64,000 nt of DNA, taken from Candidatus Dormiibacterota bacterium (lineage in GTDB: Bacteria > Chloroflexota > Dormibacteria > Aeolococcales > Aeolococcaceae). Position 1 is the stretch's first letter. Each line of letters starts with the position of its first letter. The stretch lies in the NCBI GenBank assembly GCA_963718525.1, contig OY970355.1, positions 1,159,397 through 1,223,396 of the forward strand. Direction: 5' to 3'. Shown in pieces: positions 37,626-52,381 of this stretch. The notes below the pieces were generated by a model. That model did no database searches. It was not told the DNA's origin and saw only the letters and a list, made by a program, of their open reading frames with translations. Position numbers and translations under genes: made by a program.

Positions 37626-38328
37626 GCATGTCGTGAGCGATGAGCGCGCCCTCGAGGTGGCGACGTTCGCTCAGGTGGCTGAGGAGAAAGCGCGTGTCCG
37701 GGTTCTCGGCCATCAGGCTCGCGACCTCGTCACGCCAGAGGTGACCACCCGCGGCCGGGCCGTCCCATCCCGTGCACTCGCAGACGTAGAGGTCGCATCC
37801 TGCGATCGATCGACGGAGCCCGGCGCACAGCTCGCTGTCGCCTGAGAAGCCGACCGAGGCGCTGCCCGCGGTGATCCGGTACGCGAGCGACGGGCCGGTG
37901 CTGTGCACGACCGCATGGCTCTGCACCCGGTAACCCGCAACCTCGACGTCGCTGCCGTCCTGCAGCACCAGATATTCCGGGGCGACATTGGTGTCGACCT
38001 CGCGGCGGACGTGCGAGCCGTACCCATCGCCGAGCAGGCGCGCCACGTACTCCCTGGTCCCGACGGGTCCGCCGATGACGAGCGTGCCGGGAGGCGCCGT
38101 GTCGGCGAGGGCGCGCGCGCCGAGCAGGGTCGGCAGCGAGAAGCTGTGATCCGCGTGGAAATGCGTCAGCAGCACCAGGCTGATCGCGTGGATTGACGCC
38201 CCGGCGCGGCGAACCAGGGCTGGGACCGGCGCGCCACAGTCGACCAGTACGCGTCGATCGACGAGATACCCTGCATTGCAGCCACAGCCGCTGAAGGCGC
38301 TCCCACTGCCGAGGACGGTGACATGCAC
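37594..38328 (-). CDS. MBL-fold metallo-hydrolase
   Basis: VHVTVLGSGSAF...LLTHFHADHSFSLP (HxHxDH). Confidence 0.75.
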   Translation of the reverse strand: MHVTVLGSGSAFSGCGCNAGYLVDRRVLVDCGAPVPALVRRAGASIHAISLVLLTHFHADHSFSLPTLLGARALADTAPPGTLVIGGPVGTREYVARLLGDGYGSHVRREVDTNVAPEYLVLQDGSDVEVAGYRVQSHAVVHSTGPSLAYRITAGSASVGFSGDSELCAGLRRSIAGCDLYVCECTGWDGPAAGGHLWRDEVASLMAENPDTRFLLSHLSERRHLEGALIAHDMLSLEIASAAT

Positions 38329-38371
38329 AGGCGGAAGATTAGACGGCGAAGCGCATGGGTAGAAAATCACC

Positions 38372-41011
<2,640 letters not shown>

Positions 41012-41900
41012 CGGCCGTCGCGCCCCGAGCCGGCGCGGCCCTCGCGGCGAGCACCGAGCCGCAGAGGATCAGCACGAACCCGACGGCGATGGCGCCGGTG
41101 AGCCGTTCGTGCAGCAGGAGGACACCGAGCGTCACCGCAACCGCGGGGTTCACATACGTGATCACGGTTGACCGAACCGGACCAATCTCGCGGATGAGTG
41201 CGAAGAAGAGCAGAAAGGCGAGTGCCGTGCAGACGACGCCGAGCGTGATCACCGCGGCGATCGCCTGGCCCGACGGCCACGCGTGCGGGGCCTGGATGAT
41301 CGCCGCCGGCGCATAGGCGATCGCGGCGAGCAGCAGCGAGCTCGCGATCACCCCGAGCGCGGGAAGGTCACTCAGCTTCCTGCTGATGATGTACGGACCG
41401 ACGGCGTAGCAGATCGCGACCACGAGCACCTCGGCGATGGCGCCGAACGTGGACGAGGACACATCGAAGCCGACGAGCACGCCCACCCCCACCAGCCCGA
41501 TGCAGAGGCCCAGGATCCGGCGCCAACCGTGCCGCTCTCCGCTGCGGGTCAGCAGGCCGATGCCGACGCCGATGAGCGGCACGGTCGACACCAGGAGGCC
41601 TGACAGCGAACTCGAGATGCGCAGCTCGGCATCGGAGAGGAGCACCCACGGGATCCCCATCTCGATGACGGTGTAGGCGGCGATCCAACCCCAACGTCCG
41701 AGGAGGGGACGGACCTTGACGCAACTCAACGCGATCGGGACGAGCAGCAGGGCGCCGAGCGCGAGCCGGATGAACACGAGGTCCACCGGCCCAAGGCCCT
41801 CGAGCGCAACCTTGATCAGCAGATAGGGGATGCCCCAGATCACGCACATGGCAATGAAGAGCGCCAGCCCGCGTCTGCTCACCGCGAGATCTTCTACGCT

Positions 41901-42635
41901 GTGCGGCTCCACATGCCACAACCCGTCTCGAACCGCGCCCCGAGCCCTCTGCTGCTCACGATCTCATCGCTCTTCGTGGCGACGCTCGTCGCGTCCAACA
42001 TCCTCGCTGTCAAGATCGCCAGCGTCGGACCGTTCTCCGTGCCGGCGGCGATCGTGATCTTCCCGCTCGCGTATCTCTTCGGGGATGTGCTCACCGAGGT
42101 GTGGGGATACCGGGTCGCGCGCATGGTGATATGGACGGGGTTCCTCGCCAACATCATCGTGGTGCTCTTCATCGCCGCAGCGATCGCCATCCCCGCGGAT
42201 CCGCATTACACCGACCAAGCCGCGTACGCGCGCCTACTCGGCGAGAGCCCGCGCCTCGTCGCGGCGTCGCTCACCGCCTACCTGCTCGGCGAGTTTCTCA
42301 ACGCCTTCGTCCTGGCTCGGTTGAAGATCGCGACCAGGGGCCGCTTCCTCTGGACACGAACCATCGGCTCAACTGTCATTGGTCAGGGAGTGGACAGCGC
42401 CGTGTTCATCTCACTGGCGTTTGCGGGAATCCAGCCATGGTCGGTGCTGCTCATCATCATTCGCGATGTCTGGGTCGTGAAGGTGCTCTACGAGGTGATC
42501 GCGACGCCGTTCACGTACGCGCTCGTCACCACGCTCAAACGCATCGAGGGAGTGGATACCTACGACCGTGAGACGAAGTTCGCACCCATCCCGCTCGCCG
42601 CGCTGCGCGCGCGTGTGCGCGGCGCACAGCCATGA
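41901..42635 (+). CDS. yhhQ: Queuosine precursor transporter (YhhQ/DUF165 family)
   Basis: ...LLTISSLFVATLVASNILAVKIASVGPFSVPAAIVIFPLAYLFGDVLTEVWGY... typical YhhQ. Confidence 0.75.
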   Translation: MRLHMPQPVSNRAPSPLLLTISSLFVATLVASNILAVKIASVGPFSVPAAIVIFPLAYLFGDVLTEVWGYRVARMVIWTGFLANIIVVLFIAAAIAIPADPHYTDQAAYARLLGESPRLVAASLTAYLLGEFLNAFVLARLKIATRGRFLWTRTIGSTVIGQGVDSAVFISLAFAGIQPWSVLLIIIRDVWVVKVLYEVIATPFTYALVTTLKRIEGVDTYDRETKFAPIPLAALRARVRGAQP

Positions 42636-43084
42636 GCGAGGAGCTGTATGGGGCGCGCGCGATCCGAGAGGCGAAACTCGAGGCATTCGACAACCGCACC
42701 CCGGATCGCGACTACACCGTCCAGTTCACCGTTCCGGAGTTCACGTGTCTCTGCCCCATTTCAGGGTTCCCCGACTTCGCAACCCTGCACATCCGCTACG
42801 TCCCGGGTCCCCGCTGCGTGGAACTGAAATCGCTGAAGCTGTACATCAACGGCTACCGCAACCAGCACGTCTACCACGAGGACGTCGTCAACATCGTCCT
42901 GAATGACCTCGTCGGCCTGCTCCACCCCCGCTACTGCGAAGTCGTCGGAGACTTCAACGTCCGCGGCAACATCAAAACCATCGTTCGAGCCAGCCACCGC
43001 GAGGAATCGTGGAACGGCAATGTCAACTCGTGGTGGCCGCCGTCGGCGATGCCGACTCTCACCGAACCGAGCGACCGGCCGTAG
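42632..43084 (+). CDS. queF: NADPH-dependent 7-cyano-7-deazaguanine (preQ0) reductase
   Basis: ATGA overlap with yhhQ. TCLCPISGFPDF catalytic-Cys motif. Confidence 0.9.
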   Translation: MSEELYGARAIREAKLEAFDNRTPDRDYTVQFTVPEFTCLCPISGFPDFATLHIRYVPGPRCVELKSLKLYINGYRNQHVYHEDVVNIVLNDLVGLLHPRYCEVVGDFNVRGNIKTIVRASHREESWNGNVNSWWPPSAMPTLTEPSDRP

Positions 43085-43394
43085 AGCGCGCCCGGCCCCG
43101 CGCAGCAGAGGTGGCGGTGACACGCCGGCTCGCGGCGAATCTCGCAGCAAGCGACAGCGATGCGAACGCTGAGCAAGCGAGCCGGTGTGTCGCCACCACC
43201 TCTGCCGACCCGCGAAGCCCAGCTTAGCGACGTTGCCGGTCGCTAGATTCGGGCTGAGGTAGGCACACGACGGCCGTCGCCACATATGTCGCCTGCAGTA
43301 CCCCGTTCCCAAGAAATCCGGGGCATACTGCACGCCAGGTCACGGCGATGCGCCGATACAGCAGTCGTTCTTCTCCACATCTCAGCACCCGAAC

Positions 43395-44135
43395 TTAATG
43401 GCCACACACACATTTCCCGCAGGCTGGTCGCTTCTCGCCACGCGTCCGCGCGAGGAGCTCCACCAGGCGCTGCTGACCAGCACCTCTGAGCGCTCGTTCA
43501 GTGACGTCCCGGTCGATTGGTGGGATCGAGCTGTGGAGGTCTGGCGTCCAACGTCGATCGTTCGCCTCCTCGGTGGCGTCTGGGACGTCCGCCGAGACGT
43601 CGAGGTTCTGGTTCCCGACGGTGGCGGGACCTCGCAGGCCCGCGCGAGCATCGCCGACGTTCGTCTCTCCCGCCTTCTGACCGCGGGCATCTCTCGATAC
43701 TGGGTGGCCAGATATCAGCGGGATCTCGTCCTGCAGCTTGCGGAGCGGGCCGGGGCCTTGGGCGGTGATCCGGACCCACTGAGACGTCTCTCGGCGCGCA
43801 TCCGCCCTCAGGAGGCCCTCGGCTTTGACGTCTGGGCAACGGCGTACCTCACCGGAGCGCCGGATGGCATCGAGTACGCCCCGGAGATGGTCCCGATGCC
43901 CGATGACAACGGCTGGGAGCCCGCAGCCAATGGCGACCCGCCGGCGATCATTCACGCCGCGGTTCGAGTCCTGGCTGCTGACCTGCTCCGGCTGGACTCG
44001 GCACTGGACGAGGCAGGCGCCTCGGCCGGCGAACGTGCCGGGCACCCGCTGGTCAACGCGATCACGTCACTCCTGCTGAGGGCCCCGGCGACGCCGATGG
44101 TCAGCCCAGCGGGATCCAACTCTCGCCTGGCCTGA
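43395..44135 (+). CDS. Hypothetical protein
   Basis: 245-aa ORF. Its 3' end overlaps the convergent kinase-like gene by 35 nt. Confidence 0.45.
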   Translation, partial: LMATHTFPAGWSLLATRPREELHQALLTSTSERSFSDVPVDWWDRAVEVWRPTSIVRLLGGVWDVRRDVEVLVPDGGGTSQARASIADVRLSRLLTAGISRYWVARYQRDLVLQLAERAGALGGDPDPLRRLSARIRPQEALGFDVWATAYLTGAPDGIEYAPEMVPMPDDNGWEPAANGDPPAIIHAAVRVLAADLLRLDSALDEAGASAGERAGHPLVNAITSLLLRAPATPMVSPAGSNSRLA

Positions 44136-45411
44136 GCAGCACTCGCACCGCTGCGTCGTCGCGGGATTCCGCGCCGATCCGGAGCCAGAGCCGGTCACCG
44201 TCGACCTCGAATCCGTCAGCACACGGCGCCAGGACGGCGACCGCCTGGGGGTCGATGGCGCCGACACCGTCGAACTCGGGGATGTGCTTGGCGATTCCGA
44301 ACGCCGTCTGAAGTTCGGCCATCCGTCGGGTCCAGGCGGCGATCGGTACTCGGGGCATGGGTTCGCCGAGCAGAGTCGCGAGCAGCAGCGCCAGGCCGCC
44401 GATCGTGGAGCGCGCAGGTTCATCGATGTGCTCCGAGAGTGCGCGCTCGTGGAGCAGGCCGGCGACAACCTCGCGCGCCCGGACCGCCGCGTCGTCCGGC
44501 GGCACGGACACCCACAGTCCGCGCCGCCCGGCGCGTGCGGTGAGGCCGGCGTCGACGACGATGCTCCCCGGTGACGCTTCGGCCGCCACCTGGAGCTTCG
44601 CGAGCTGCAACTCGGCGGCGATCACGCTTCCCGGGGCGAGCCGGGTCTCCTCGTCCCAGGAGCGCGTTGCTCGGGACACGCGACCCTCGCGGATTGCCCC
44701 AAGTGGGAGCGCCAGGCGCCGGATACCCAGCTCCAGGGTCGCGGCGCGACTGCCGTCACCGATTGGCCTGGGCGGATAGACGGTGCCGCCGATGGCGTCT
44801 GCCGCAACGCGCGCGAAACCGAGACCCCAGCGGTCGCGGCCGGCTCGGCGACGCGCCGTCGCAATTCGAGGCGCCGGACCGGCGTGCCGCCAGACAACCC
44901 GAAACGTCGTGCGATCGACCTCGAGGCGGACCGCAGTCGCCGCGTCGTGACGCTCGGCATTGACCGCGAGCTGCACCAGCACCAGCGCTGCCACCTCGGG
45001 GCCGAGCACCGGCCGGGCCGTTCCGGCGATCGCATCGACAGTCAGCGCAGTCCGCGCGGTGATGCCCGCACGGGCAAGGTCGAGGACGTCTTCCGTTGTT
45101 CCCCAGCCGCCCGGCTCCCGGCCGGCCACCAAACGCAGTGACCCTCCGAGCATTCGGACGCGCTGTGCCTGGGTGCCGCGCAACCCCGCTGCCGCCGCGT
45201 CGATGGCATCGAGCAGTCTGCTCAGAAGGGCATCGCAGTGCGCAGACGCGGGCTGAGTGCGAACCACAAGACGCATGCTTCGTACGGGGTAGGAGACCGC
45301 GCCGGGGCCGTATCCATCCCACTCAGGAGTTCTGGCGACCACCGTTCCAGAAGCGTCGACGAGGGCAGCGGCAAGCGGGAGCTCGGCGATCTCGGCCAGG
45401 CTGAGATTCAC
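44101..45411 (-). CDS. Histidine-kinase-like (GHKL/HATPase_c-like) ATPase-domain protein, degenerate
   Basis: N-box-like ALVLVQLAVNAERHDAA. G-box-like RHAGPAP...RWGLGFARVAADAIGGTV. No recognisable HisKA H-box. GTG start overlaps the stop of the REC gene (GTGA). Confidence 0.55.
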   Translation of the reverse strand: MNLSLAEIAELPLAAALVDASGTVVARTPEWDGYGPGAVSYPVRSMRLVVRTQPASAHCDALLSRLLDAIDAAAAGLRGTQAQRVRMLGGSLRLVAGREPGGWGTTEDVLDLARAGITARTALTVDAIAGTARPVLGPEVAALVLVQLAVNAERHDAATAVRLEVDRTTFRVVWRHAGPAPRIATARRRAGRDRWGLGFARVAADAIGGTVYPPRPIGDGSRAATLELGIRRLALPLGAIREGRVSRATRSWDEETRLAPGSVIAAELQLAKLQVAAEASPGSIVVDAGLTARAGRRGLWVSVPPDDAAVRAREVVAGLLHERALSEHIDEPARSTIGGLALLLATLLGEPMPRVPIAAWTRRMAELQTAFGIAKHIPEFDGVGAIDPQAVAVLAPCADGFEVDGDRLWLRIGAESRDDAAVRVLLRPGESWIPLG

Positions 45412-46076
45412 GACTTGCTGGCGGGTGCAGCGTGCTCAGTCGTGGTCACGCTGAGCCGGTACTTGCGATTGCCGTGGCTCACGAGCCGAACTGCGGAGCC
45501 GCGGGTCTGCAGCCATTCGCCGAAGCGGCGAACCGCCTTGGTGGCGGTGTCCGAATGAAAGGTGACGATGTCCGGGTGGTGCACCACCAGGCGGATTGCC
45601 TCGCGGTGGTGGTGTTGTGCCAGCGTCGGAAGATGCACGACAACCGTCCCGTCGTGGATTCGCAGGTCGCCGACGGTGCGGTCGAGCATCCTGTCGATGC
45701 GCTCGAGCAGTGACGCGTCGCCGTCACGCTTGTCGTGCAGCAGGGCCCGCGGGTGCGATCGCTGAATCTGGCTGCGCACGTTGAACGCGTCGATGTTCTG
45801 TGAATACACGATGACGGGGCACTCTCGAAGCTCCCGTGCGAGCCGTGAAAGCACGTCGCCGCTGCTCGCGCTCCGGTCCGGTGCCTTCCCGAGATCCCAA
45901 TCGATGATCGCGAGCACAGGCCTGCTCGAGTATCGGTTGTGCTCGAGGAGCGAGAGCGCGCGAGACGCACTCCGCGCACCGAGCGGATGGAACCGCTTGC
46001 GGGTGAAATGACCCTGCAGCTCCTCGAGGGTTTCTGCGTCGTCCTCGAGGATCAGCACCTCCGGATTCGCTCTCAT
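45408..46076 (-). CDS. Atypical receiver (REC)-domain protein with an unknown ~95-aa C-terminal domain
   Basis: VLILEDDAETLEEL (acidic pocket), AIIDWDLG (phospho-Asp position), VIVYSQ (T/S position), ALLHDKRDGD (conserved Lys). No HTH output domain. Confidence 0.6.
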   Translation of the reverse strand: MRANPEVLILEDDAETLEELQGHFTRKRFHPLGARSASRALSLLEHNRYSSRPVLAIIDWDLGKAPDRSASSGDVLSRLARELRECPVIVYSQNIDAFNVRSQIQRSHPRALLHDKRDGDASLLERIDRMLDRTVGDLRIHDGTVVVHLPTLAQHHHREAIRLVVHHPDIVTFHSDTATKAVRRFGEWLQTRGSAVRLVSHGNRKYRLSVTTTEHAAPASKS

Positions 46077-46825
46077 CGCGCGGCAGCAACCGGAGACCGC
46101 ACCAGTCTCGTGCTCTGGTTGGTGTCACGTCTGGCCTCCCATCCGACGTGGTACTGCGCGAGCGCACTGGCGGCCGAGCGGAACGTGCGTGTCGGGAGCG
46201 CAAATCCGGCCGGGTACGCTGCGACCAGCGACTCGAGCGCCGCTCCCCGCAGCAGGGTCCCGTCCTCGAGCTCGACGCCGTTTCCCGGCGCGAGCCGCAT
46301 GCCGCCGACAGTCGCAACGCATGCTCGGCCGACCGCGTCGAGCAGCGCCGCCGGACGGTCGAAGACGCGAGCGTGTCCGGGCAGCCCTGTCGGGGCTGCG
46401 CCGAACCAGTAGGTGAGCACAGGACGATCGCGCAGCACCGCAGCGAGCGCGGGCGACAACGAGACAGCGCTGCCCACCACCATCCATGGCCAGGGAAGAC
46501 AGCTGGCAGCGATCGCACCGGCATCTTCGGAGCGCGCGTCGCGCACGACGGCCATGCCCGGGGACACGGCGTCGCGAACCGCGACTGCGAGCTCACCGTC
46601 CACGGTCACCACGAGGATCGCTCGGCTCCGATCCGGGACGCGAACGCCAAGCATGCATTGAGCGTTGGTGACCACCACGACACGTCCCTCCCTGCCGCGC
46701 ATCGCGAGAGAACGGAAAGGTCCGTGCCCGCGGGCGGCCTCAGCCAGTGTAGGGGTGACGGGGGTGGGACGGGCCGGACAGGCGGACACGGACACCGTGT
46801 AACCATCGGGGGCCGAGCCGGACAT
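46073..46825 (-). CDS. Hypothetical protein, first gene of the REC/kinase-like operon
   Basis: ATGA-coupled to the REC gene. The start is uncertain (ATG 46825 or 46702). Confidence 0.45.
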   Translation of the reverse strand: MSGSAPDGYTVSVSACPARPTPVTPTLAEAARGHGPFRSLAMRGREGRVVVVTNAQCMLGVRVPDRSRAILVVTVDGELAVAVRDAVSPGMAVVRDARSEDAGAIAASCLPWPWMVVGSAVSLSPALAAVLRDRPVLTYWFGAAPTGLPGHARVFDRPAALLDAVGRACVATVGGMRLAPGNGVELEDGTLLRGAALESLVAAYPAGFALPTRTFRSAASALAQYHVGWEARRDTNQSTRLVRSPVAAAR

Positions 46826-46872
46826 CGCGCGGACAGACAAGGCGGGCCGAGACGTGGCAGACTGAGCGCGGT

Positions 46873-48141
46873 ATGTCCACCTCAGACGCCGGGGAGCCAG
46901 CCGCCGATTCGGTCCGGCTGGCACTGGGCGAGATCCTGCATCGCCCGCTCATCGACAGTGCTGGGGGCCGGCTCGGCCGGGTGGATGACGTCATCGCTCG
47001 TTTCGCCGAGGGCGGCTACCCGCCTATAACCGGTCTGGTCGGGCGCATTGCAGGGCGGAAGCTGTTCATCCCTCGCGACCGCATCGCCTCGATGAAGCCA
47101 GGGAGCGTGCAGCTGGCGGGCGAGGATCTCAACCTCGCCCATTTCGAACGGCGCCAGGGTGAGGTCCTGCTCGGTGAGGACGTTCTCGGCCGGCGCCTCA
47201 TCAGCGTCGACGCCGGCAGGCTGGTCGTGGCCCACGACATCGTCCTCCGGCAGGAGGGTTCGAGGTGGGTCGTCGCAGGTGTCGATACCCGGCCCCGCGG
47301 TTGGCGCGGACGCCTCCTGGGCGGGGGAGGCGACAGCCGGGGATTCGTGGACTGGGCCGCGGTTGAACCGTTCGTCGGGCACGTGCCGTCGTCACGGCTG
47401 CTGATGCCATTGCGCCGTCTGCGCCGTCTGCACCCCGCGCAGATCGCCGACCTCGTCGAGGCGGCATCGCATGACGAAGGTGAGGAGATCATCTCGGCCG
47501 TGCACGGAGACCCGGAGTTGGAAGCCGACGTCTTTGAAGAGCTCAACACCGAGCACCAGGTGGAATTCCTCCGCGACAAGTCGGATGCCGAAGCTGCAGC
47601 CGTGCTGGCCGAGATGGGACCGGATGATGCCGCCGACCTGGTCACCGAGCTCGATCAACCGCGACGGGCGCCGATCCTGTCGTTGCTCCCACCGTCGCAG
47701 CAGGCGAAGGTTCGCGCGCTGCTCAGCTATGGGCAGAGCAGCGCAGGCGGGCTGATGAGCCCGGACTTCGTGTCGGTCGGGCCTGACGCAACCGTCGCGG
47801 ATGCGCTGGCTGCAGTGTGCACCGCCGACGTCCTCCCCCAGGTCGTCGCCGATGTCTTCATCCTCGACGACGGACGTCTCGCCGGATCGGTGCCGCTCAT
47901 CGAGTTGCTTCGCGCCGACGGCGCCCAACGGATCTCGGATCTCGTCGAGCACAGCAACGCGTCGGTGCACGTCGACGATGACTTTCCCGAGGTCGCCCGG
48001 CGCATGGCCGACTTCAACCTCACGGTCGTCGCGGTCCTCGACGATGAGAACCGGGTGATCGGGGTCATCACCGTCGACGACGTGCTTGAGGCCATGCTGC
48101 CCAACTCATGGCGGCGACGAGCCGAGGCGGACGGCGACTGA
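46873..48141 (+). CDS. Soluble PRC-barrel + MgtE-N + CBS-pair protein (no membrane domain)
   Basis: N-terminal PRC-barrel-like repeats, an MgtE_N region (...DVFEELNTEHQVEFLRDKSDAEAAAVLAEMGPDDAADLVTEL...), then CBS pairs. The ORF ends with no TM helices. Confidence 0.7.
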   Translation: MSTSDAGEPAADSVRLALGEILHRPLIDSAGGRLGRVDDVIARFAEGGYPPITGLVGRIAGRKLFIPRDRIASMKPGSVQLAGEDLNLAHFERRQGEVLLGEDVLGRRLISVDAGRLVVAHDIVLRQEGSRWVVAGVDTRPRGWRGRLLGGGGDSRGFVDWAAVEPFVGHVPSSRLLMPLRRLRRLHPAQIADLVEAASHDEGEEIISAVHGDPELEADVFEELNTEHQVEFLRDKSDAEAAAVLAEMGPDDAADLVTELDQPRRAPILSLLPPSQQAKVRALLSYGQSSAGGLMSPDFVSVGPDATVADALAAVCTADVLPQVVADVFILDDGRLAGSVPLIELLRADGAQRISDLVEHSNASVHVDDDFPEVARRMADFNLTVVAVLDDENRVIGVITVDDVLEAMLPNSWRRRAEADGD

Positions 48142-48349
48142 ACCTCGGGCCATCGGTCCAGGTGCGGTTGTACACTTCATATACGGCAACCGTGTTTTTG
48201 GAGTGGATTCACCAGCACATGGACGGCGGCGAGAGTCCCCAGTCCCGGCAACTCACGGACCGGCCCGCAGCGAGGTAGCGAACCAGTCGTGACCTCCTGA
48301 GCGGAAAGGCCCGCTCAGTCTTGCCGTCATCGACGGTGGGAGGTCCGAC

Positions 48350-49996
48350 TTGGCGAAGGAGAAGGCTCGCAAGGCTGACGCCAGCGTGGCGCGCGGCAAT
48401 ACAGCGGTCCTTGATGCCGCACACCTCGGAGACATCCGCGGCGCGTTCGGCACCATTCCCGAGCACGAGACCAACGCGCCGCGCACATGGCGGCGTCGCC
48501 TCCTTGCGCTCGCGGTGATCATGGGTCCCGGCCTCATCGTGATGGTCGGCGACAACGACGCCGGAGGCGTCTCGACGTACGCGCAGGCCGGGCAGAACTA
48601 TGGGACGACCCTGCTCTGGACCCTGGTGTTCCTCATCCCGGTGCTCATCGTCAACCAGGAGATGGTGGTGCGCCTCGGCGCTGTCACCGGAGTCGGACAC
48701 GGCCGGCTGATCTTCGAGCGTTTCGGCCGTTTCTGGGGCTGGTTTGCGGTTGGGGATCTGTTCATCCTCAACTTCCTCACCATAGCGACGGAGTTCATCG
48801 GAATCTCGCTCGGCGCCGCGTACTTCGGGGTGTCGCCTTACCTTGCGGTGCCGCTCGCGGGGCTGCTGCTCATCGGGATCACCGTCACCGGTCGTTTCGA
48901 GACCTGGGAACGCCTGATGTTCGTGATCCTCTTCGGCAACCTGCTGATCATCCCGCTGGTGATCCTCAGCCATCCCAACGTGGGTCACGTTGTCCACGAC
49001 CTTGTGATCCCGGGAATGAAAGGTGGTCTGACGTCGAACGGCGTGCTGCTCATCATCGCCATCGTCGGTACCACCGTCGCGCCCTGGCAGCTGTTCTTCC
49101 AGCAATCCAATGTCGTCGACAAGCGCATCACGCCGCGATGGATCCCATACGAGCGAGCCGACACCGTGATCGGCGCGTTCGTCGTCGTCATCGGCGCGAC
49201 GGCGATCATGGTGACAACGGCCTTCGCGTTCCAGAACACTCCGCTCGCGGGACATTTCGTCGACGCGGGAACGGTTGCGACCGGCATCGCGTCGCGCCTC
49301 GGATCAGCGGCCGGAGCGCTGTTCGCGATCCTGCTCATCGACGCATCGATCATCGGCGCAAGTGCTGTAACGCTCGCGACCTCGTATGCGTTCGGCGATA
49401 CCTTCGGTATCAGGCACTCGCTGCACCGCCCGTGGCGGGAGGCCAAGCCCTTCTACGCGTCCTACACCGTGCTGGTGGTCCTTGCGGCTGGGCTCACACT
49501 CACCCCGAACGCCCCGCTTGGGCTCATCACCACTGCGGTGCAGGCACTCGCCGGTGTGCTGCTTCCGAGCGCGAGCCTCTTCTTGCTGCTCCTGTGCAAT
49601 GACCGTGACGTGCTCGGACCGTGGGTGAACCGCACGTGGTTGAACATCGTCGCGACCCTGATTCTCGGAATGCTGGTGATGCTGTCGCTCATCCTGGTCA
49701 TCACCACCGTGTTCTCGTCGGCGAACGTTCCGCTGCTGCTGGCCGTGCTTTCGGGCGTGATGCTGGCGGGGCTGGTGGAAGTCACCGTGTTCACGACCCG
49801 CGTAGGGCGCGCCAGCCGGACGGACACGCTGTCGCGCGAGGACCGCGAGACGTGGCGCATGCCACCGCTGGCACTGTTGACGCGACCCGAGCCGTCGCGG
49901 AGCCGGCTCGTCGCGCTGTACTCAATGCGCGGCTATCTCGTGGTCGCGGTGCTGCTCCTCCTCGTCAAAGCGGTGCAGTTGGGTACTGGGCACTAG
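48350..49996 (+). CDS. mntH: Nramp-family divalent metal (Mn2+/Fe2+) transporter
   Basis: ...GPGLIVMVGDNDAGGVSTYAQAGQNYG... Nramp signature (DPGN-like motif), 11 TM. Confidence 0.9.
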   Translation: MAKEKARKADASVARGNTAVLDAAHLGDIRGAFGTIPEHETNAPRTWRRRLLALAVIMGPGLIVMVGDNDAGGVSTYAQAGQNYGTTLLWTLVFLIPVLIVNQEMVVRLGAVTGVGHGRLIFERFGRFWGWFAVGDLFILNFLTIATEFIGISLGAAYFGVSPYLAVPLAGLLLIGITVTGRFETWERLMFVILFGNLLIIPLVILSHPNVGHVVHDLVIPGMKGGLTSNGVLLIIAIVGTTVAPWQLFFQQSNVVDKRITPRWIPYERADTVIGAFVVVIGATAIMVTTAFAFQNTPLAGHFVDAGTVATGIASRLGSAAGALFAILLIDASIIGASAVTLATSYAFGDTFGIRHSLHRPWREAKPFYASYTVLVVLAAGLTLTPNAPLGLITTAVQALAGVLLPSASLFLLLLCNDRDVLGPWVNRTWLNIVATLILGMLVMLSLILVITTVFSSANVPLLLAVLSGVMLAGLVEVTVFTTRVGRASRTDTLSREDRETWRMPPLALLTRPEPSRSRLVALYSMRGYLVVAVLLLLVKAVQLGTGH

Positions 49997-50735
49997 CCGC
50001 GATCGGCACCCGATTGAACGGCGTGACGCAGGGGCGGCCGGGCGCATGCTCGTACACAACACGATCAGTCCCGGCGATCACCATCGACGCCGACACCGTC
50101 CCGTATATGTCGCCATGGATGCATGCGGCATCAGCCGGCGAATCGCTCGCCGACGTGTGATCGCGGAGGATGGCGCGCAGCCCGTTCAGCGTCGCCTCGG
50201 CATCGTTGCCCGGGGTCAGGGCTCGGTCCATCGCCTCTCGAAGCATGGCGACCTTCGCACTGCGGACGTCATCGACATCGCGCGTCGTCAGCACATGGAG
50301 TCCCGGATCGAGGTCGACCACGCGGACCGGACCGGAGTCGTCGACGTGGGCCGCGACGGCTCGCTCGGCGCTGAGCCAGAGCACGTTGACCGGGTTGTAT
50401 CGACCTGGACCCAGGCCGGCGAGGCGGCTGGGAACGTCGTCGGGGTCCCTCGTGAGCATCGCGACCGGGATCTCGCCCCTGGATCGGCGCGAGGGATCGG
50501 GCGCCCCAGGCGCGCCCTCACCAGGGTGCCTGTTGGTGACCGCGCAGACGCTGCCACCGGCGCCGACCGCGAGCCATGTCCCACCGGCCGTCAGGTCCCG
50601 GCCACCAAGGATCAGCGGGCTCTCCGACAGCACCCCCGGCGGAGCACTAGGACGGGCGATCAGCTCATCTCGATTCGCCGCAAGCACGATCGGCGTCCCC
50701 GGGTGGCACCGCCAGGCCAGGAGGATCGTGCACAC
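49965..50735 (-). CDS. NRDE family protein (DUF833/TANGO2-like)
   Basis: VCTILLAWRCHPGTPIVLAANRDE. GTG start 50735. Confidence 0.7.
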   Translation of the reverse strand: MCTILLAWRCHPGTPIVLAANRDELIARPSAPPGVLSESPLILGGRDLTAGGTWLAVGAGGSVCAVTNRHPGEGAPGAPDPSRRSRGEIPVAMLTRDPDDVPSRLAGLGPGRYNPVNVLWLSAERAVAAHVDDSGPVRVVDLDPGLHVLTTRDVDDVRSAKVAMLREAMDRALTPGNDAEATLNGLRAILRDHTSASDSPADAACIHGDIYGTVSASMVIAGTDRVVYEHAPGRPCVTPFNRVPIAASAQYPTAPL

Positions 50736-50861
50736 CGGTCGAATCGTATGCGGACACGCAACTCTGTTGTGAACTCTGTAAACGCGACCTCGCGACGCCG
50801 TGACGACCCGCCGACTTCCAACTCGTCGGGGCGGTATTAAGACCAAAGTTGGAACACGTCA

Positions 50862-51626
50862 ATGAATGCAAACGTCATCAGCCGGCTGACGACCCGGGGG
50901 CGTGCGAGAAGCCTCGCCGCCATCGCGCTGCTTCCGGGCGCCTTCGCACTCATGCTGGCAGGGGCTTCAAGTGCGGCTGCGGCCGGCAACCCCACGCCGG
51001 CGCCATCGCCCACGGCGACGACATTGTCGGCACAGTCCCCGAGCGTCTGTCACCACGGAACCAGGCCGGACGGTTCGTGCTGCCCGAGACGGCAACCCTG
51101 CACGTCCCCGTCGCCCAGCCCAACACCGTCGCCCACCCCAACACCGTCGCCCACGGCTACCCCCACTGCAACTCCGAGCCCAACCGGTGCCGGCAAGAAC
51201 GGCGGCAACGGGAATGGAGGGGGCGGCTCGACGCCCACGCCGGCGCCGACTGCCACCCCAGCCCCAACCGGCACTCCGGCGCCGACCTCCAAGCCGGCGA
51301 CGACCCCGGCAACATCTGGCGGCAGCCACTCCGACGGTGACGGTACCTCCGGGAGCGGGGCCACGGGCGGCTCCCAAGCCACCCGGGCTCAGGCGCCAGC
51401 CGATCCCACGCCGTTTGCGCCGCTTGCCAGCACGGTGACCGTGGCGACGTCCGGGCAGAGCCTCGACGCGGCCCGGATCCCGCCGGTTGAGGCGCTCACC
51501 CCGCTGAGCGGGCTCGAGTTCGGCAACGGCCTGAACCTCGGACCGCTCCTGCCCCTCATCGACCTGATCGGGATCGGCCTGCTCGTCTACCTGGTCCGTA
51601 CTCGCTGGCTCGCGCCCGAAGCCTGA
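50862..51626 (+). CDS. Secreted or surface-anchored Pro/Thr/Ser-rich low-complexity protein
   Basis: Signal peptide, PSPTPTPS repeats, Gly-rich stretch, C-terminal hydrophobic anchor [17 protein letters not shown]. Confidence 0.6.
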   Translation: MNANVISRLTTRGRARSLAAIALLPGAFALMLAGASSAAAAGNPTPAPSPTATTLSAQSPSVCHHGTRPDGSCCPRRQPCTSPSPSPTPSPTPTPSPTATPTATPSPTGAGKNGGNGNGGGGSTPTPAPTATPAPTGTPAPTSKPATTPATSGGSHSDGDGTSGSGATGGSQATRAQAPADPTPFAPLASTVTVATSGQSLDAARIPPVEALTPLSGLEFGNGLNLGPLLPLIDLIGIGLLVYLVRTRWLAPEA

Positions 51627-52381
51627 CCGACAGCGACGGGCCCGGCGCCTTGGCCGATCCCCTCGAGCCCCTGATCGATGGCCGCCGCGGTCACTGCAGC
51701 TGCACGACGTGCCGCCTCTGCGAGCGGGGTGCCGCGCGCGAGCTCGGCGGCAAGCGTCGCCGAGTGCGTGCAGCCCGTACCGTGCGTCGCTGTCCCGCCC
51801 ACCCAGACGACGGGGATCTCGAGGTACTCGATGCCGTCGAACAGGAGGTCTGAGCCTTCGCCCTCACCGCCGGTGATCACCACGGCGCGGGCGCCTCGAG
51901 CAACGATTCGCGCGGCCAGCGCCCGGCGATCGCCGTCGCCGCCGGCCAGAACCCGAGCCTCCGCGAGATTCGGGGTCACCACGGTGGCGAGCGGCAGCAG
52001 CGACTCGATCAGCACCTCAACCGCCTCGGGGTCGAGGAGCGACGCCCCGATGCTGGCTCGGATGACGGGGTCGACGACGAGCGGGGTCGGATGGCGTCCG
52101 AGGAACTCGGCGACCGTGACGATGACATCCGCCGAGAGCAGGGCGCCGGTCTTTACGGCGTCGACGCCGATGTCGTCATACACGGCCTGGAGTTGCGCCG
52201 CGATCACCCAGGTTGGCAGCGCGTAGGTCGCAACGATCTCTCGGGTGTTCTGTGCGGTGACACCGACAATCGCGGTCATCCCGTGACAGCCGGCGGCTGC
52301 AAAGGCCTTCAGGTCCGCCTGGATCCCGGCGCCACCGCCTGAATCCGAGGTGGCGATCGACAGGCAACGCGGTGGTGTCAC
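51587..52381 (-). CDS. thiD: Hydroxymethylpyrimidine/phosphomethylpyrimidine kinase
   Basis: [32 protein letters not shown]..., ...[17 protein letters not shown]. Confidence 0.9.

Follow-up and report, generated by a model that had tools for sequence, protein, structure and literature searches.

Pseudo-kinases, pseudo-receivers and atypical OmpR/PhoB regulators have already been recognized as categories (PMC12632262, PMC4211667). Here we analyze a three-gene operon, A-B-C, on the minus strand of a 64-kb stretch of contig OY970355.1 (hereafter the window; 64,000 nucleotides, G+C ~67%) from a Candidatus Dormiibacterota bacterium (GCA_963718525.1), and we compare it with the closest described systems. 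Gene C encodes a soluble, internally duplicated histidine-kinase-like protein, gene B reads as an OmpR/PhoB-like response regulator with a complete phospho-acceptor pocket, and gene A fits best as a paralogue of B, with a pseudo-receiver and an OmpR-like winged-helix effector domain reduced in the same way. We propose, with a probability of roughly 0.55, that the operon is a phylum-specific, strongly diverged two-component system of Dormibacterota that regulates itself.

On the kinase side, NarL/DesK-type kinases (HisKA_3+HATPase_c) resemble C in that residues 103-227 of C are homologous to them, with an NxxRH N-box and a GWGL G2 box, and in that a helical hairpin precedes this domain; Foldseek alignments of C to DHp+CA cores, that of DesK included, span 200-225 columns. 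Unlike these kinases, C has no His in the preceding hairpin, its G1 box has changed from DxGxG to W-x-x-x-G, it has no transmembrane (TM) segment or recognizable sensor, and the whole unit is duplicated within the chain, with the sole candidate His in the second copy. ChpT of Caulobacter and DivL share with C a kinase-like DHp+CA fold and a degenerate nucleotide site, and both serve response regulators without classical autokinase activity. ChpT is a homodimer of a single unit in which the N and G boxes are wholly lost, whereas in C, a tandem repeat, the N-box and G2 box are retained and invariant; DivL differs from C in having Tyr at the His position, a membrane anchor and PAS domains. EL346 (4r39/4r3a) is soluble, like C, and is a monomeric kinase with DHp-like helices that are not homodimeric. 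Unlike C it consists of one unit, carries a LOV sensor and has its His and ATP site in canonical form; C might become monomeric through its internal duplication.

On the regulator side, B is colinear with PhoB, with Asp59 on Asp53 and a shared LDW motif, and the A model gives two-domain alignments to PrrA, KdpE and MtrA. Pho boxes are spaced with an 11-bp period, as is the direct repeat found upstream of the operon. Unlike OmpR/PhoB regulators, the effector domain here apparently lacks helix alpha2 (a ~15-residue deletion), Lys116 of B is followed by Arg and not Pro, and Response_reg and Trans_reg_C fall below their Pfam thresholds. HP1043, ChxR, GlnR and pseudo-receivers resemble A in having a receiver-like fold without the conserved Asp, Thr and Lys, and the phosphorylation-independent HP1043 (2hqr) was the third-best structural match of the A model. 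ChxR is an atypical OmpR/PhoB member that binds direct repeats (PMC12632262). HP1043, ChxR and GlnR are orphans, whereas A is translationally coupled to a putatively phosphorylatable paralogue and a kinase-like protein; this coupling to B and C suggests that A works inside a pathway.

A conserved three-gene operon across Dormibacterota

An earlier note on this DNA, made from its letters alone, had described three minus-strand genes overlapping by ATGA and GTGA. We found the same open reading frames (ORFs) and overlaps in the window (ATGA at A stop and B start, GTGA at B stop and C start), and the overlaps are conserved. Homologues of the window genes come almost exclusively from Candidatus Dormibacterota metagenome-assembled genomes (MAGs), and those of matching length number 273 for C, 191 for B and 140 for A. 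A scan of one genome per species gave 96 loci encoding C, nearly all carrying a Dormibacterota label and a few carrying other bin labels, and 80 of these loci were fetched for comparison. Within this set C is present in 80/80, B in 78/80 and A in 75/80 loci, with the misses at contig ends, and wherever the genes are present they stand in the order A-B-C on one strand. Co-occurrence profiling, which the earlier note had suggested, thus finds 75-78 species loci out of 80 with the triad. A, B and C alone are universal across the phylum loci, and the flanking genes vary.

Identity across loci is highest for B (57-97%), followed by C (47-90%) and A (36-86%). The B-C junction is a 4-nt overlap in 67/75 loci, and the A-B junction is a 4-nt overlap in 48 loci and a 1-nt overlap in 13 (61/63 valid junctions); both overlaps are kept far beyond chance. 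The G+C content of third codon positions (GC3) had left the strand of A and of the neighboring gene D ambiguous, an ambiguity settled by sense-frame identity that is far above antisense-frame identity for both genes across the 80 loci. Together, these observations support the earlier description of a coupled three-gene operon, and the analysis as a whole supports the earlier suggestion that it encodes an atypical phospho-signaling module.

Standard annotation leaves this operon almost blank. Pfam, NCBIfam and PADLOC scans of A, B, C and D returned nothing but a sub-threshold Response_reg match for B, and the PADLOC anti-phage models gave zero matches to A-D at E values up to 1. The products of the triad are named 'hypothetical' or given a generic receiver name in all public records examined, and a literature search found no paper linking Dormibacterota with the A-B-C protein family. 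The earlier note had considered that profile searches might assign the proteins to a known family: none does so over threshold, while the deeper comparisons described below place all three in two-component families. No conserved partner kinase was found in the triad neighborhoods of the 80 loci.

Four metagenome ORFs (P0322, P0132, P0428 and P0494) were considered as natural A/B/C fusions and rejected as assembly or calling artifacts because they contain scrambled, frameshifted stretches. One MAG (SPRUCE 448) carries two diverged A-B-C triads on separate contigs (L051 and L064), either through true paralogy or because the bin is mixed.

Gene C is a tandemly duplicated histidine-kinase-like protein

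The window protein C gave no score with Pfam HATPase_c or HisKA_3, and one member of its family scores with HATPase_c (E 0.09). A hidden Markov model (HMM) search with the family profile against 1.84 billion representative proteins returned 143 matches, all of the same length class or fragments, and with so few representatives among so many proteins we regard the C family as closed and lineage-specific. The weakest match of that search (E 7.7e-4), P0502, is a genuine HisKA_3+HATPase_c kinase. Profile-sequence comparison with hhalign matched residues 103-218 of C to P0502 with a probability of 94.6% (E 6.5e-8), placing the N-box LVQLAVNAERH of C on QEALTNAAKH, its G2 box RWGLGFARxAADAxGG on GWGLRMMRERAEAVGG and its G1 box F-x-V-x-W-x-G on ELFIEDNGCG.

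Structure prediction gives the same picture. An AlphaFold2 model of C, built with 72 diverse sequences, had a predicted local distance difference test score (pLDDT) of 93.6 and a predicted template modeling score (pTM) of 0.91. A Foldseek search of the PDB with this model found DHp+CA kinase cores as the best matches (135-225 aligned columns, probability 1.0), among them CusS, AdeS, PrrB, EnvZ chimeras, HK853, DesK and the monomeric EL346 (ranks 11-13 and 28), plus the phosphotransferase ChpT (chains at ranks 6, 14, 18 and 31).

The chain consists of two repeats (Table 1). In the model, repeat 1 is laid out as a beta domain (residues 14-51), a helical hairpin (57-95) and a catalytic alpha/beta (CA/Bergerat) domain (103-227), and repeat 2 as a beta/alpha domain containing TRxWDEE (237-302), a helical hairpin (308-347) and an alpha/beta domain (354-436). 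The two repeats align colinearly by hhalign (9-174 to 233-426, E 3.7e-4, probability 36%). Motifs paired by eye include ELPLAAALVDASGTVVARTPEWDGYGPG with LALPLGAIREGRVSRATRSWDEETRLAPG, and LPLAAAL..G.V.A.TPEW in one repeat matches LALPLA...G.V..ATR.WDEE in the other.

The conserved residues are divided between the repeats. Across the 72 sequences, which reach down to ~30% identity, the invariant residues are P12, E30, W31, Q147, N151, H155, G196, D205, R293 and H321, of which P12, E30 and W31 lie in the small beta domain of repeat 1. Repeat 1 keeps the N-box (Q147/N151/H155) and the G2 box (G196/D205/G208, with G208 in 71/72), and the HATPase_c-like N-box and G-box claimed from the letters NAERHD and GLGFARVAADAIGG are therefore borne out, both stretches being present and N151, H155, G196 and D205 being invariant. 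At the position of the G1 Asp (the D of DNGCG in P0502), C has W174, a Trp in 70/72 sequences, and the Glu preceding the N-box is lost. The CA-like domain of repeat 2 is truncated and has neither N nor G boxes.

The candidate phospho-acceptor lies in the other repeat. Hairpin 57-95 contains no conserved His in the 72 sequences, and just two His residues, H155 in the N-box and H321, are conserved in half or more of them. The pair H321-E322 (codons 44446-44451) is invariant and sits in the first helix of the second DHp-like hairpin, and the position equivalent to H321 in the first hairpin is D/A/G. The closer homologues conserve Ser91, another residue of the first hairpin, which is present in 46/72 sequences family-wide. 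We found no TM segment in C, in which no stretch is TM-like in hydrophobicity within a non-globular context, and saw no recognizable sensor domain. The term 'degenerate' that had been applied to this kinase-like protein, for want of an H-box His before the catalytic domain and of a TM sensor, is apt on both counts, and to these we add the loss of the G1 box.

Gene B reads as an OmpR/PhoB-like response regulator

Pfam Response_reg matches B at 18.6 bits against a cut-off of 30.2, and 19/25 members of the B family match the same model below threshold (best E 5e-4); the best weak NCBIfam matches are PhoB and PmrA. The receiver landmarks reported earlier for B (E11-D12-D13, IID59WD, YS92Q and HDK116) are all present and are invariant or near-invariant in 75 species: E11 in 75, D12 in 75, D13 in 74 (one D13E), D59 (codon 45900-45902) in 75, Ser or Thr at position 92 in 63 and 12, and K116 in 75. 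This conservation of the pocket argues for phosphorylation of B.

We compared B with E. coli PhoB, using a PhoB sequence verified against PDB 1b00 and 1gxp. The deep B profile aligned colinearly with PhoB from residues 3-212 to 1-229 (hhalign probability 50%, E 1.6e-4), and a separate hhalign run with the A4 profile over the receiver placed S92 on PhoB T83 and D59 on D53, within LAIIDWDL (B) and LILLDWML (PhoB). The receiver-like motifs of B, whose failure to align the earlier note had named as a ground for refutation, do align with PhoB at D59 and S92.

The C-terminal domain is more diverged. Aligned to PhoB alone, this domain gives a non-significant match (E 0.18) that nonetheless follows the register to be expected of an OmpR/PhoB effector: VGDLRI.DG..V falls on the N-terminal sheet, HHPDIV on THPERV, TATKAVRRF on RTVDVHIRRL of the recognition helix and NRKYRL on GTGYRF of the wing, and the B-PhoB alignment has a gap of ~15 residues at the place of helix alpha2. 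The stretches TKAVRRF and NRKYRL, the putative recognition helix and wing of B, are basic and do not vary. A winged helix without helix alpha2 is thus a well-motivated reading of residues ~125-210. The isolated domain has no match to Pfam Trans_reg_C, and the earlier description of an unknown C-terminus in place of a helix-turn-helix holds only for plain profile searches; structure prediction and profile-profile comparison point to a winged helix in reduced form, which the upstream direct repeat makes most likely.

A search of the window and loci ORFs with PhoB as query found no canonical OmpR regulators, the best weak matches being the B orthologues themselves. Two B homologues carry the JGI name 'Molybdopterin converting factor small subunit', which raised the possibility of a beta-grasp C-terminus; nothing supported it, and it was dropped.

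Gene A reads best as a pseudo-receiver paralogue of B

Profile searches with A and its family members returned no matches, and to this extent the earlier statement that this protein has no recognizable domain stands. It does not stand for the model and for hhalign, which point to a CheY-like domain followed by a winged-helix-like fold. The AlphaFold2 model of A, built with 117 sequences, has an overall pLDDT of 76.9. Residues 28-129 form a CheY-like beta-alpha sandwich (pLDDT ~90; topology beta-alpha-beta-alpha-beta-alpha-beta-beta-alpha), and residues 131-202, at pLDDT 60-79, are modeled with three short strands, a pair of helices and a beta hairpin. Foldseek matches of this model are weak (E ~1e-2, probability 0.7-0.98) and include two-domain alignments to the OmpR-family proteins PrrA (225 columns), HP1043, KdpE and MtrA, as well as receiver-only matches to MtrA-N, PhoB-N, FrzS and the CpaE N-domain (probability 0.97-0.98, E ~1e-2). 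The deep A and B profiles align colinearly over both domains (hhalign E 0.004), and their C-terminal domains alone align with E 0.0075.

The receiver-like domain of A does not keep the phosphorylation pocket. In 74 species the phospho-Asp position after beta3 is occupied by S (30), D (17), A (15), T (8) or N (2), and A has neither a Thr/Ser after beta4 (W-L-G) nor a Lys after beta5 (F-x-R).

The start of gene A had been placed at 46924, giving a 283-aa protein; we reject this start in favor of the GTG at 46678. In a DNA alignment of 19 loci of the close clade (alignment A7), indels upstream of 46678 are not multiples of three, and an invariant GGGAGGG, 7 nt and an invariant GTG follow one another up to the start. 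The open frame before core residue R27 is cut to 12-58 codons by an in-frame stop in some loci. Because of these non-triplet indels, short upstream frames and the invariant Shine-Dalgarno sequence and GTG, we define gene A as 46073-46678. A start at 46924 would overlap the divergent gene at 46873, and the start at 46678 removes this supposed overlap. A 209-aa version (ATG at 46702, one NCBI call) was also rejected, its ATG not being conserved.

The likely operon 5' leader includes an invariant, -10-like TACACT (Table 1). A scan for sigma-70 consensus promoters and intrinsic terminators detected none, and for this reason we place the promoter at TACACT only provisionally. An Rfam scan of positions 38000-52000 gave no matches.

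A candidate operator lies upstream of gene A

The spacer between A and the divergent gene is conserved like coding DNA in the close clade and holds repeated TGTCCG motifs. In distant clades, with other upstream genes and unalignable flanks, TGTCCG-N5-(T/C)GTCCG recurs with its 11-bp period. The pattern YGTCCK-N5-YGTCC has 64 matches in 927 kb of the 80 loci, counting both strands (1.85 Mb of strand sequence); 53/64 fall on the sense strand in the 350 nt preceding A (~26 kb in total), in 52/75 loci, and the remaining 11/64 approximate chance expectation. In the 64-kb window its sole match is at 46820-46835 (-). As chance alone would give about one match in 64 kb, the evidence lies in the position and conservation of the repeat and not in its count. 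A second cluster of TGTCCG half-sites lies ~25 nt downstream of the first pair, and its GTGTCCGTGTCC core is kept across the 19 aligned loci of the close clade.

OmpR/PhoB-family dimers classically bind tandem half-sites that lie one helical turn apart. The 11-bp-period direct repeat fits an OmpR/PhoB-type DNA-binding output, and it would lend independent support to a DNA-binding role of B and/or A and to autoregulation.

In the distant clade of L039, L040 and L042, TGTCCG-N5-TGTCC is found on the opposite strand, ~425-431 nt upstream of A, with single GGACA half-sites nearer A, which suggests that the operator has been re-oriented there. Separately, an invariant 11-nt block at ~46853-46863 (reading AGTCTGCCACG on the minus strand) lies just upstream of the start codon of the divergent MgtE_N/CBS gene. 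This block also occurs in L038, L044, L055, L056 and L074, where the flanks are otherwise unalignable, and may be a leader or operator element of the MgtE_N/CBS gene.

Proposed mechanism and alternatives

The mechanism that we favor builds on the structure and conservation of the operon, the homology of the C catalytic domain, the internal duplication of C, the invariance or near-invariance of the B pocket residues and the positional conservation of the repeat. C, a cytoplasmic protein, would have arisen by tandem duplication of a unit made of a small sensor domain, a helical hairpin and a catalytic domain, and its copies would have specialized, copy 1 retaining a NarL/DesK-type ATPase domain and losing the phospho-accepting His, and copy 2 carrying His321-Glu322 and a truncated ATPase domain. 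The two hairpins may pack like the subunits of a kinase dimer, giving a single-chain 'pseudo-dimer' in which the copy-1 catalytic domain would serve His321. We propose this arrangement because of the internal duplication, the location of catalytic motifs and His in complementary repeats, and the high pTM, which suggests a fixed arrangement of the repeats. C could then be a phosphodonor or a phosphatase for B, with putative steps of ATP use, His321 phosphorylation and transfer to B. B would be the cognate response regulator, phosphorylated on Asp59, and A, which could not be phosphorylated, would probably partner or compete with B constitutively at one shared DNA site, or act on C. Phosphorylated B, with or against A, is predicted to bind TGTCCG-N5-TGTCCG upstream of A, and this binding would regulate the operon and, in this clade, also the MgtE_N/CBS-Nramp genes that diverge from it.

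According to the earlier note, a classical two-component system does not fit this architecture. We depart from this view, as all three proteins appear to derive from two-component parts: C is related to a HisKA_3 kinase (94.6%), B to PhoB (E 1.6e-4) and the A model to OmpR regulators.

Several points weigh against the mechanism outlined above. No curated model scores above threshold for A, B or C, and PDB sequence-profile searches with the C, A and B alignments gave nothing meaningful. By hhalign the C-terminal domain of B alone has a non-significant match to PhoB, so that the winged helix of B leans on this alignment (E 0.18) and on weak links through A (E 0.004-0.0075), and the C-domain of the A model has a pLDDT of just 60-79. 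The exact repeat pattern is missing from 23/75 loci, and many of the 52 positive loci are closely related and hence are not independent observations. His321 lies in the model near the hairpin-loop end of a short helix (308-326), as opposed to mid-helix in a canonical DHp domain. Finally, the near-invariant Trp174 occupies the place of the G1 Asp that contacts adenine in all ATP-binding GHKL proteins, and because of this replacement ATP binding by C is doubtful.

This last point leads to the strongest alternative, in which C is a pseudokinase or ChpT-like phosphotransferase that does not use ATP, and B and A still bind DNA at the repeat. C might then shuttle phosphate through His321 to B from an unlinked kinase or acetyl phosphate, or might be a DivL-like protein that dephosphorylates, scaffolds or senses phosphorylated B. 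The Trp at the G1 Asp and the loss of the Glu before the N-box favor such a protein, as do the ChpT structures among the top Foldseek matches (4fpp, 4fmt and 4qpk), the lack of a sensor or TM domain, and the standing of pseudo-histidine kinases as a recognized class (PMC12632262, PMC4211667). However, Asn151, H155 and the G2 glycines stay unchanged in sequences as distant as 30% identity, a pattern not easily accounted for unless C has a nucleotide or phosphate ligand. The triad also has no other conserved kinase beside it, and a ChpT-type shuttle would need an upstream receiver as donor, a role for which A lacks the Asp. We regard this alternative as a serious possibility, if a doubtful one.

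A non-transcriptional switch, in which the C-termini of B and A bind proteins such as ClpB or the MgtE_N/CBS-Nramp pair and another factor binds the repeat, would account for the missing Trans_reg_C or other HTH (helix-turn-helix) profile match, for a predicted domain without helix alpha2 of the canonical helix-turn-helix, and for ClpB as a neighbor in ~60/80 loci. Yet the repeat tracks gene A across clades whatever the neighbors, with OmpR/PhoB-typical spacing, the stretches of B read as recognition helix and wing are invariant and basic, and ClpB is convergent, is not co-transcribed and is absent from some loci that have the triad; we consider such a switch unlikely. Partner-switching by an RsbW/SpoIIAB-like anti-sigma Ser kinase, to which the short N-box-to-G2 distance and the conservation of Ser91 in the first hairpin of closer homologues might point, and anti-phage defense are very improbable, given that A-D and their conserved neighbors include no HATPase_c_2, STAS, PP2C or sigma factor, that A-D have no PADLOC match, that Ser91 is found in just 46/72 sequences, that the catalytic domain has its closest homologue in a HisKA_3 histidine kinase, and that the triad is a stable part of the phylum core, with even GC and conserved synteny, and not a mobile island. 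The absence of partner-switching or chemotaxis components agrees with the earlier note, which had set both aside.

We therefore return to the diverged two-component operon as our preferred account. A bolder form of it would make C a new histidine-kinase architecture, a single-chain pseudo-dimer with a remodeled Trp pocket and a separate His half, working with active and decoy OmpR-like regulators that have a minimized winged helix, the whole being phylum-defining; this we put forward as tentative at best. The architecture is unusual and testable, and we infer every mechanistic step beyond homology.

Feature coordinates and neighboring genes

Table 1. Positions of the triad, its parts and associated elements in the window.
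Feature	Position	Strand	Details or basis
Gene D, hypothetical	43398-44135	+	245 aa; convergent with C, 35-nt overlap
Gene C (gene 3, kinase-like)	44101..45411	-	436 aa
C repeat 2, residues 233-436	44104..44715	-	hhalign repeat comparison, residue counts
C repeat 1, residues 1-232	44716..45411	-	hhalign, residue counts, modeled secondary structure
Gene B (gene 2, receiver)	45408..46076	-	222 aa
Gene A (gene 1)	46073..46678	-	201 aa from GTG at 46678
Likely operon 5' leader	46676..46751	-	invariant columns, alignment A7
GTG start of gene A	46676-46678	-	alignment A7
GGGAGGG Shine-Dalgarno, invariant	46686-46692	-	alignment A7
TACACT, -10-like, invariant	46746-46751	-	alignment A7
Second TGTCCG half-site cluster (TGTCCGTGTCCGCCTGTCCG)	46775..46794	-	~25 nt downstream of first pair
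Candidate operator TGTCCG-CGCGA-TGTCCG, 11-bp period	46819..46835	-	between A and divergent gene at 46873

A fourth hypothetical gene converging on C had been noted before, and gene D is indeed a real coding gene on the plus strand, with 65-93% identity in its sense frame against 35-53% in the antisense frame. It has no family match in Pfam, NCBIfam or PADLOC and is restricted to the close clade (38 loci), where its convergent overlap with C is conserved at mostly 29 nt.

Upstream of the triad, the divergent region 46873-49996 (+) encodes an MgtE_N + CBS-pair protein (422 aa) without the MgtE membrane domain, followed by an Nramp-family transporter (548 aa). This pair adjoins the triad in 38-42/80 loci, and it looks like a split cytosolic Mg/metal-sensing module paired with a transporter.

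Downstream, ClpB (38372-41011, +) is convergent with the triad, is found in ~60/80 loci and is not co-transcribed with it; it directly abuts C in clades without any intervening genes. After A, B and C, the order of conservation is ClpB (~60 loci) and then QueF (~50), and the upstream genes are clade-dependent. Positions 41901-43084 (+) hold a gene for Vut_1 (a YhhQ-like queuosine-precursor transporter) and a QueF gene with a 4-nt overlap, and Rfam detected no preQ1 or other riboswitch near them within 38000-52000.

Significance

Dormibacterota abound in soil and permafrost, and the greater part of their genes lacks annotation; to our knowledge, no member has been cultured. We found no literature description of a tandem-duplicated kinase-like architecture with split features, of a G1 Asp-to-Trp pocket, of a minimized winged helix common to an active and a decoy regulator, or of a phylum-wide triad with an operator. 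The triad is among the most conserved unannotated operons near the locus in the phylum. Three members of very large families here escape all curated profiles and can still be found when structure prediction, profile-profile comparison and comparative genomics are combined.

If the mechanism proposed here is true, C would be a natural single-chain version of a trans-phosphorylating kinase dimer, with catalysis and the acceptor His on different repeats, and would provide a case in which the universal adenine-binding Asp of GHKL ATPases has been replaced. Placing the triad among two-component systems gives it a testable function and a candidate DNA target.

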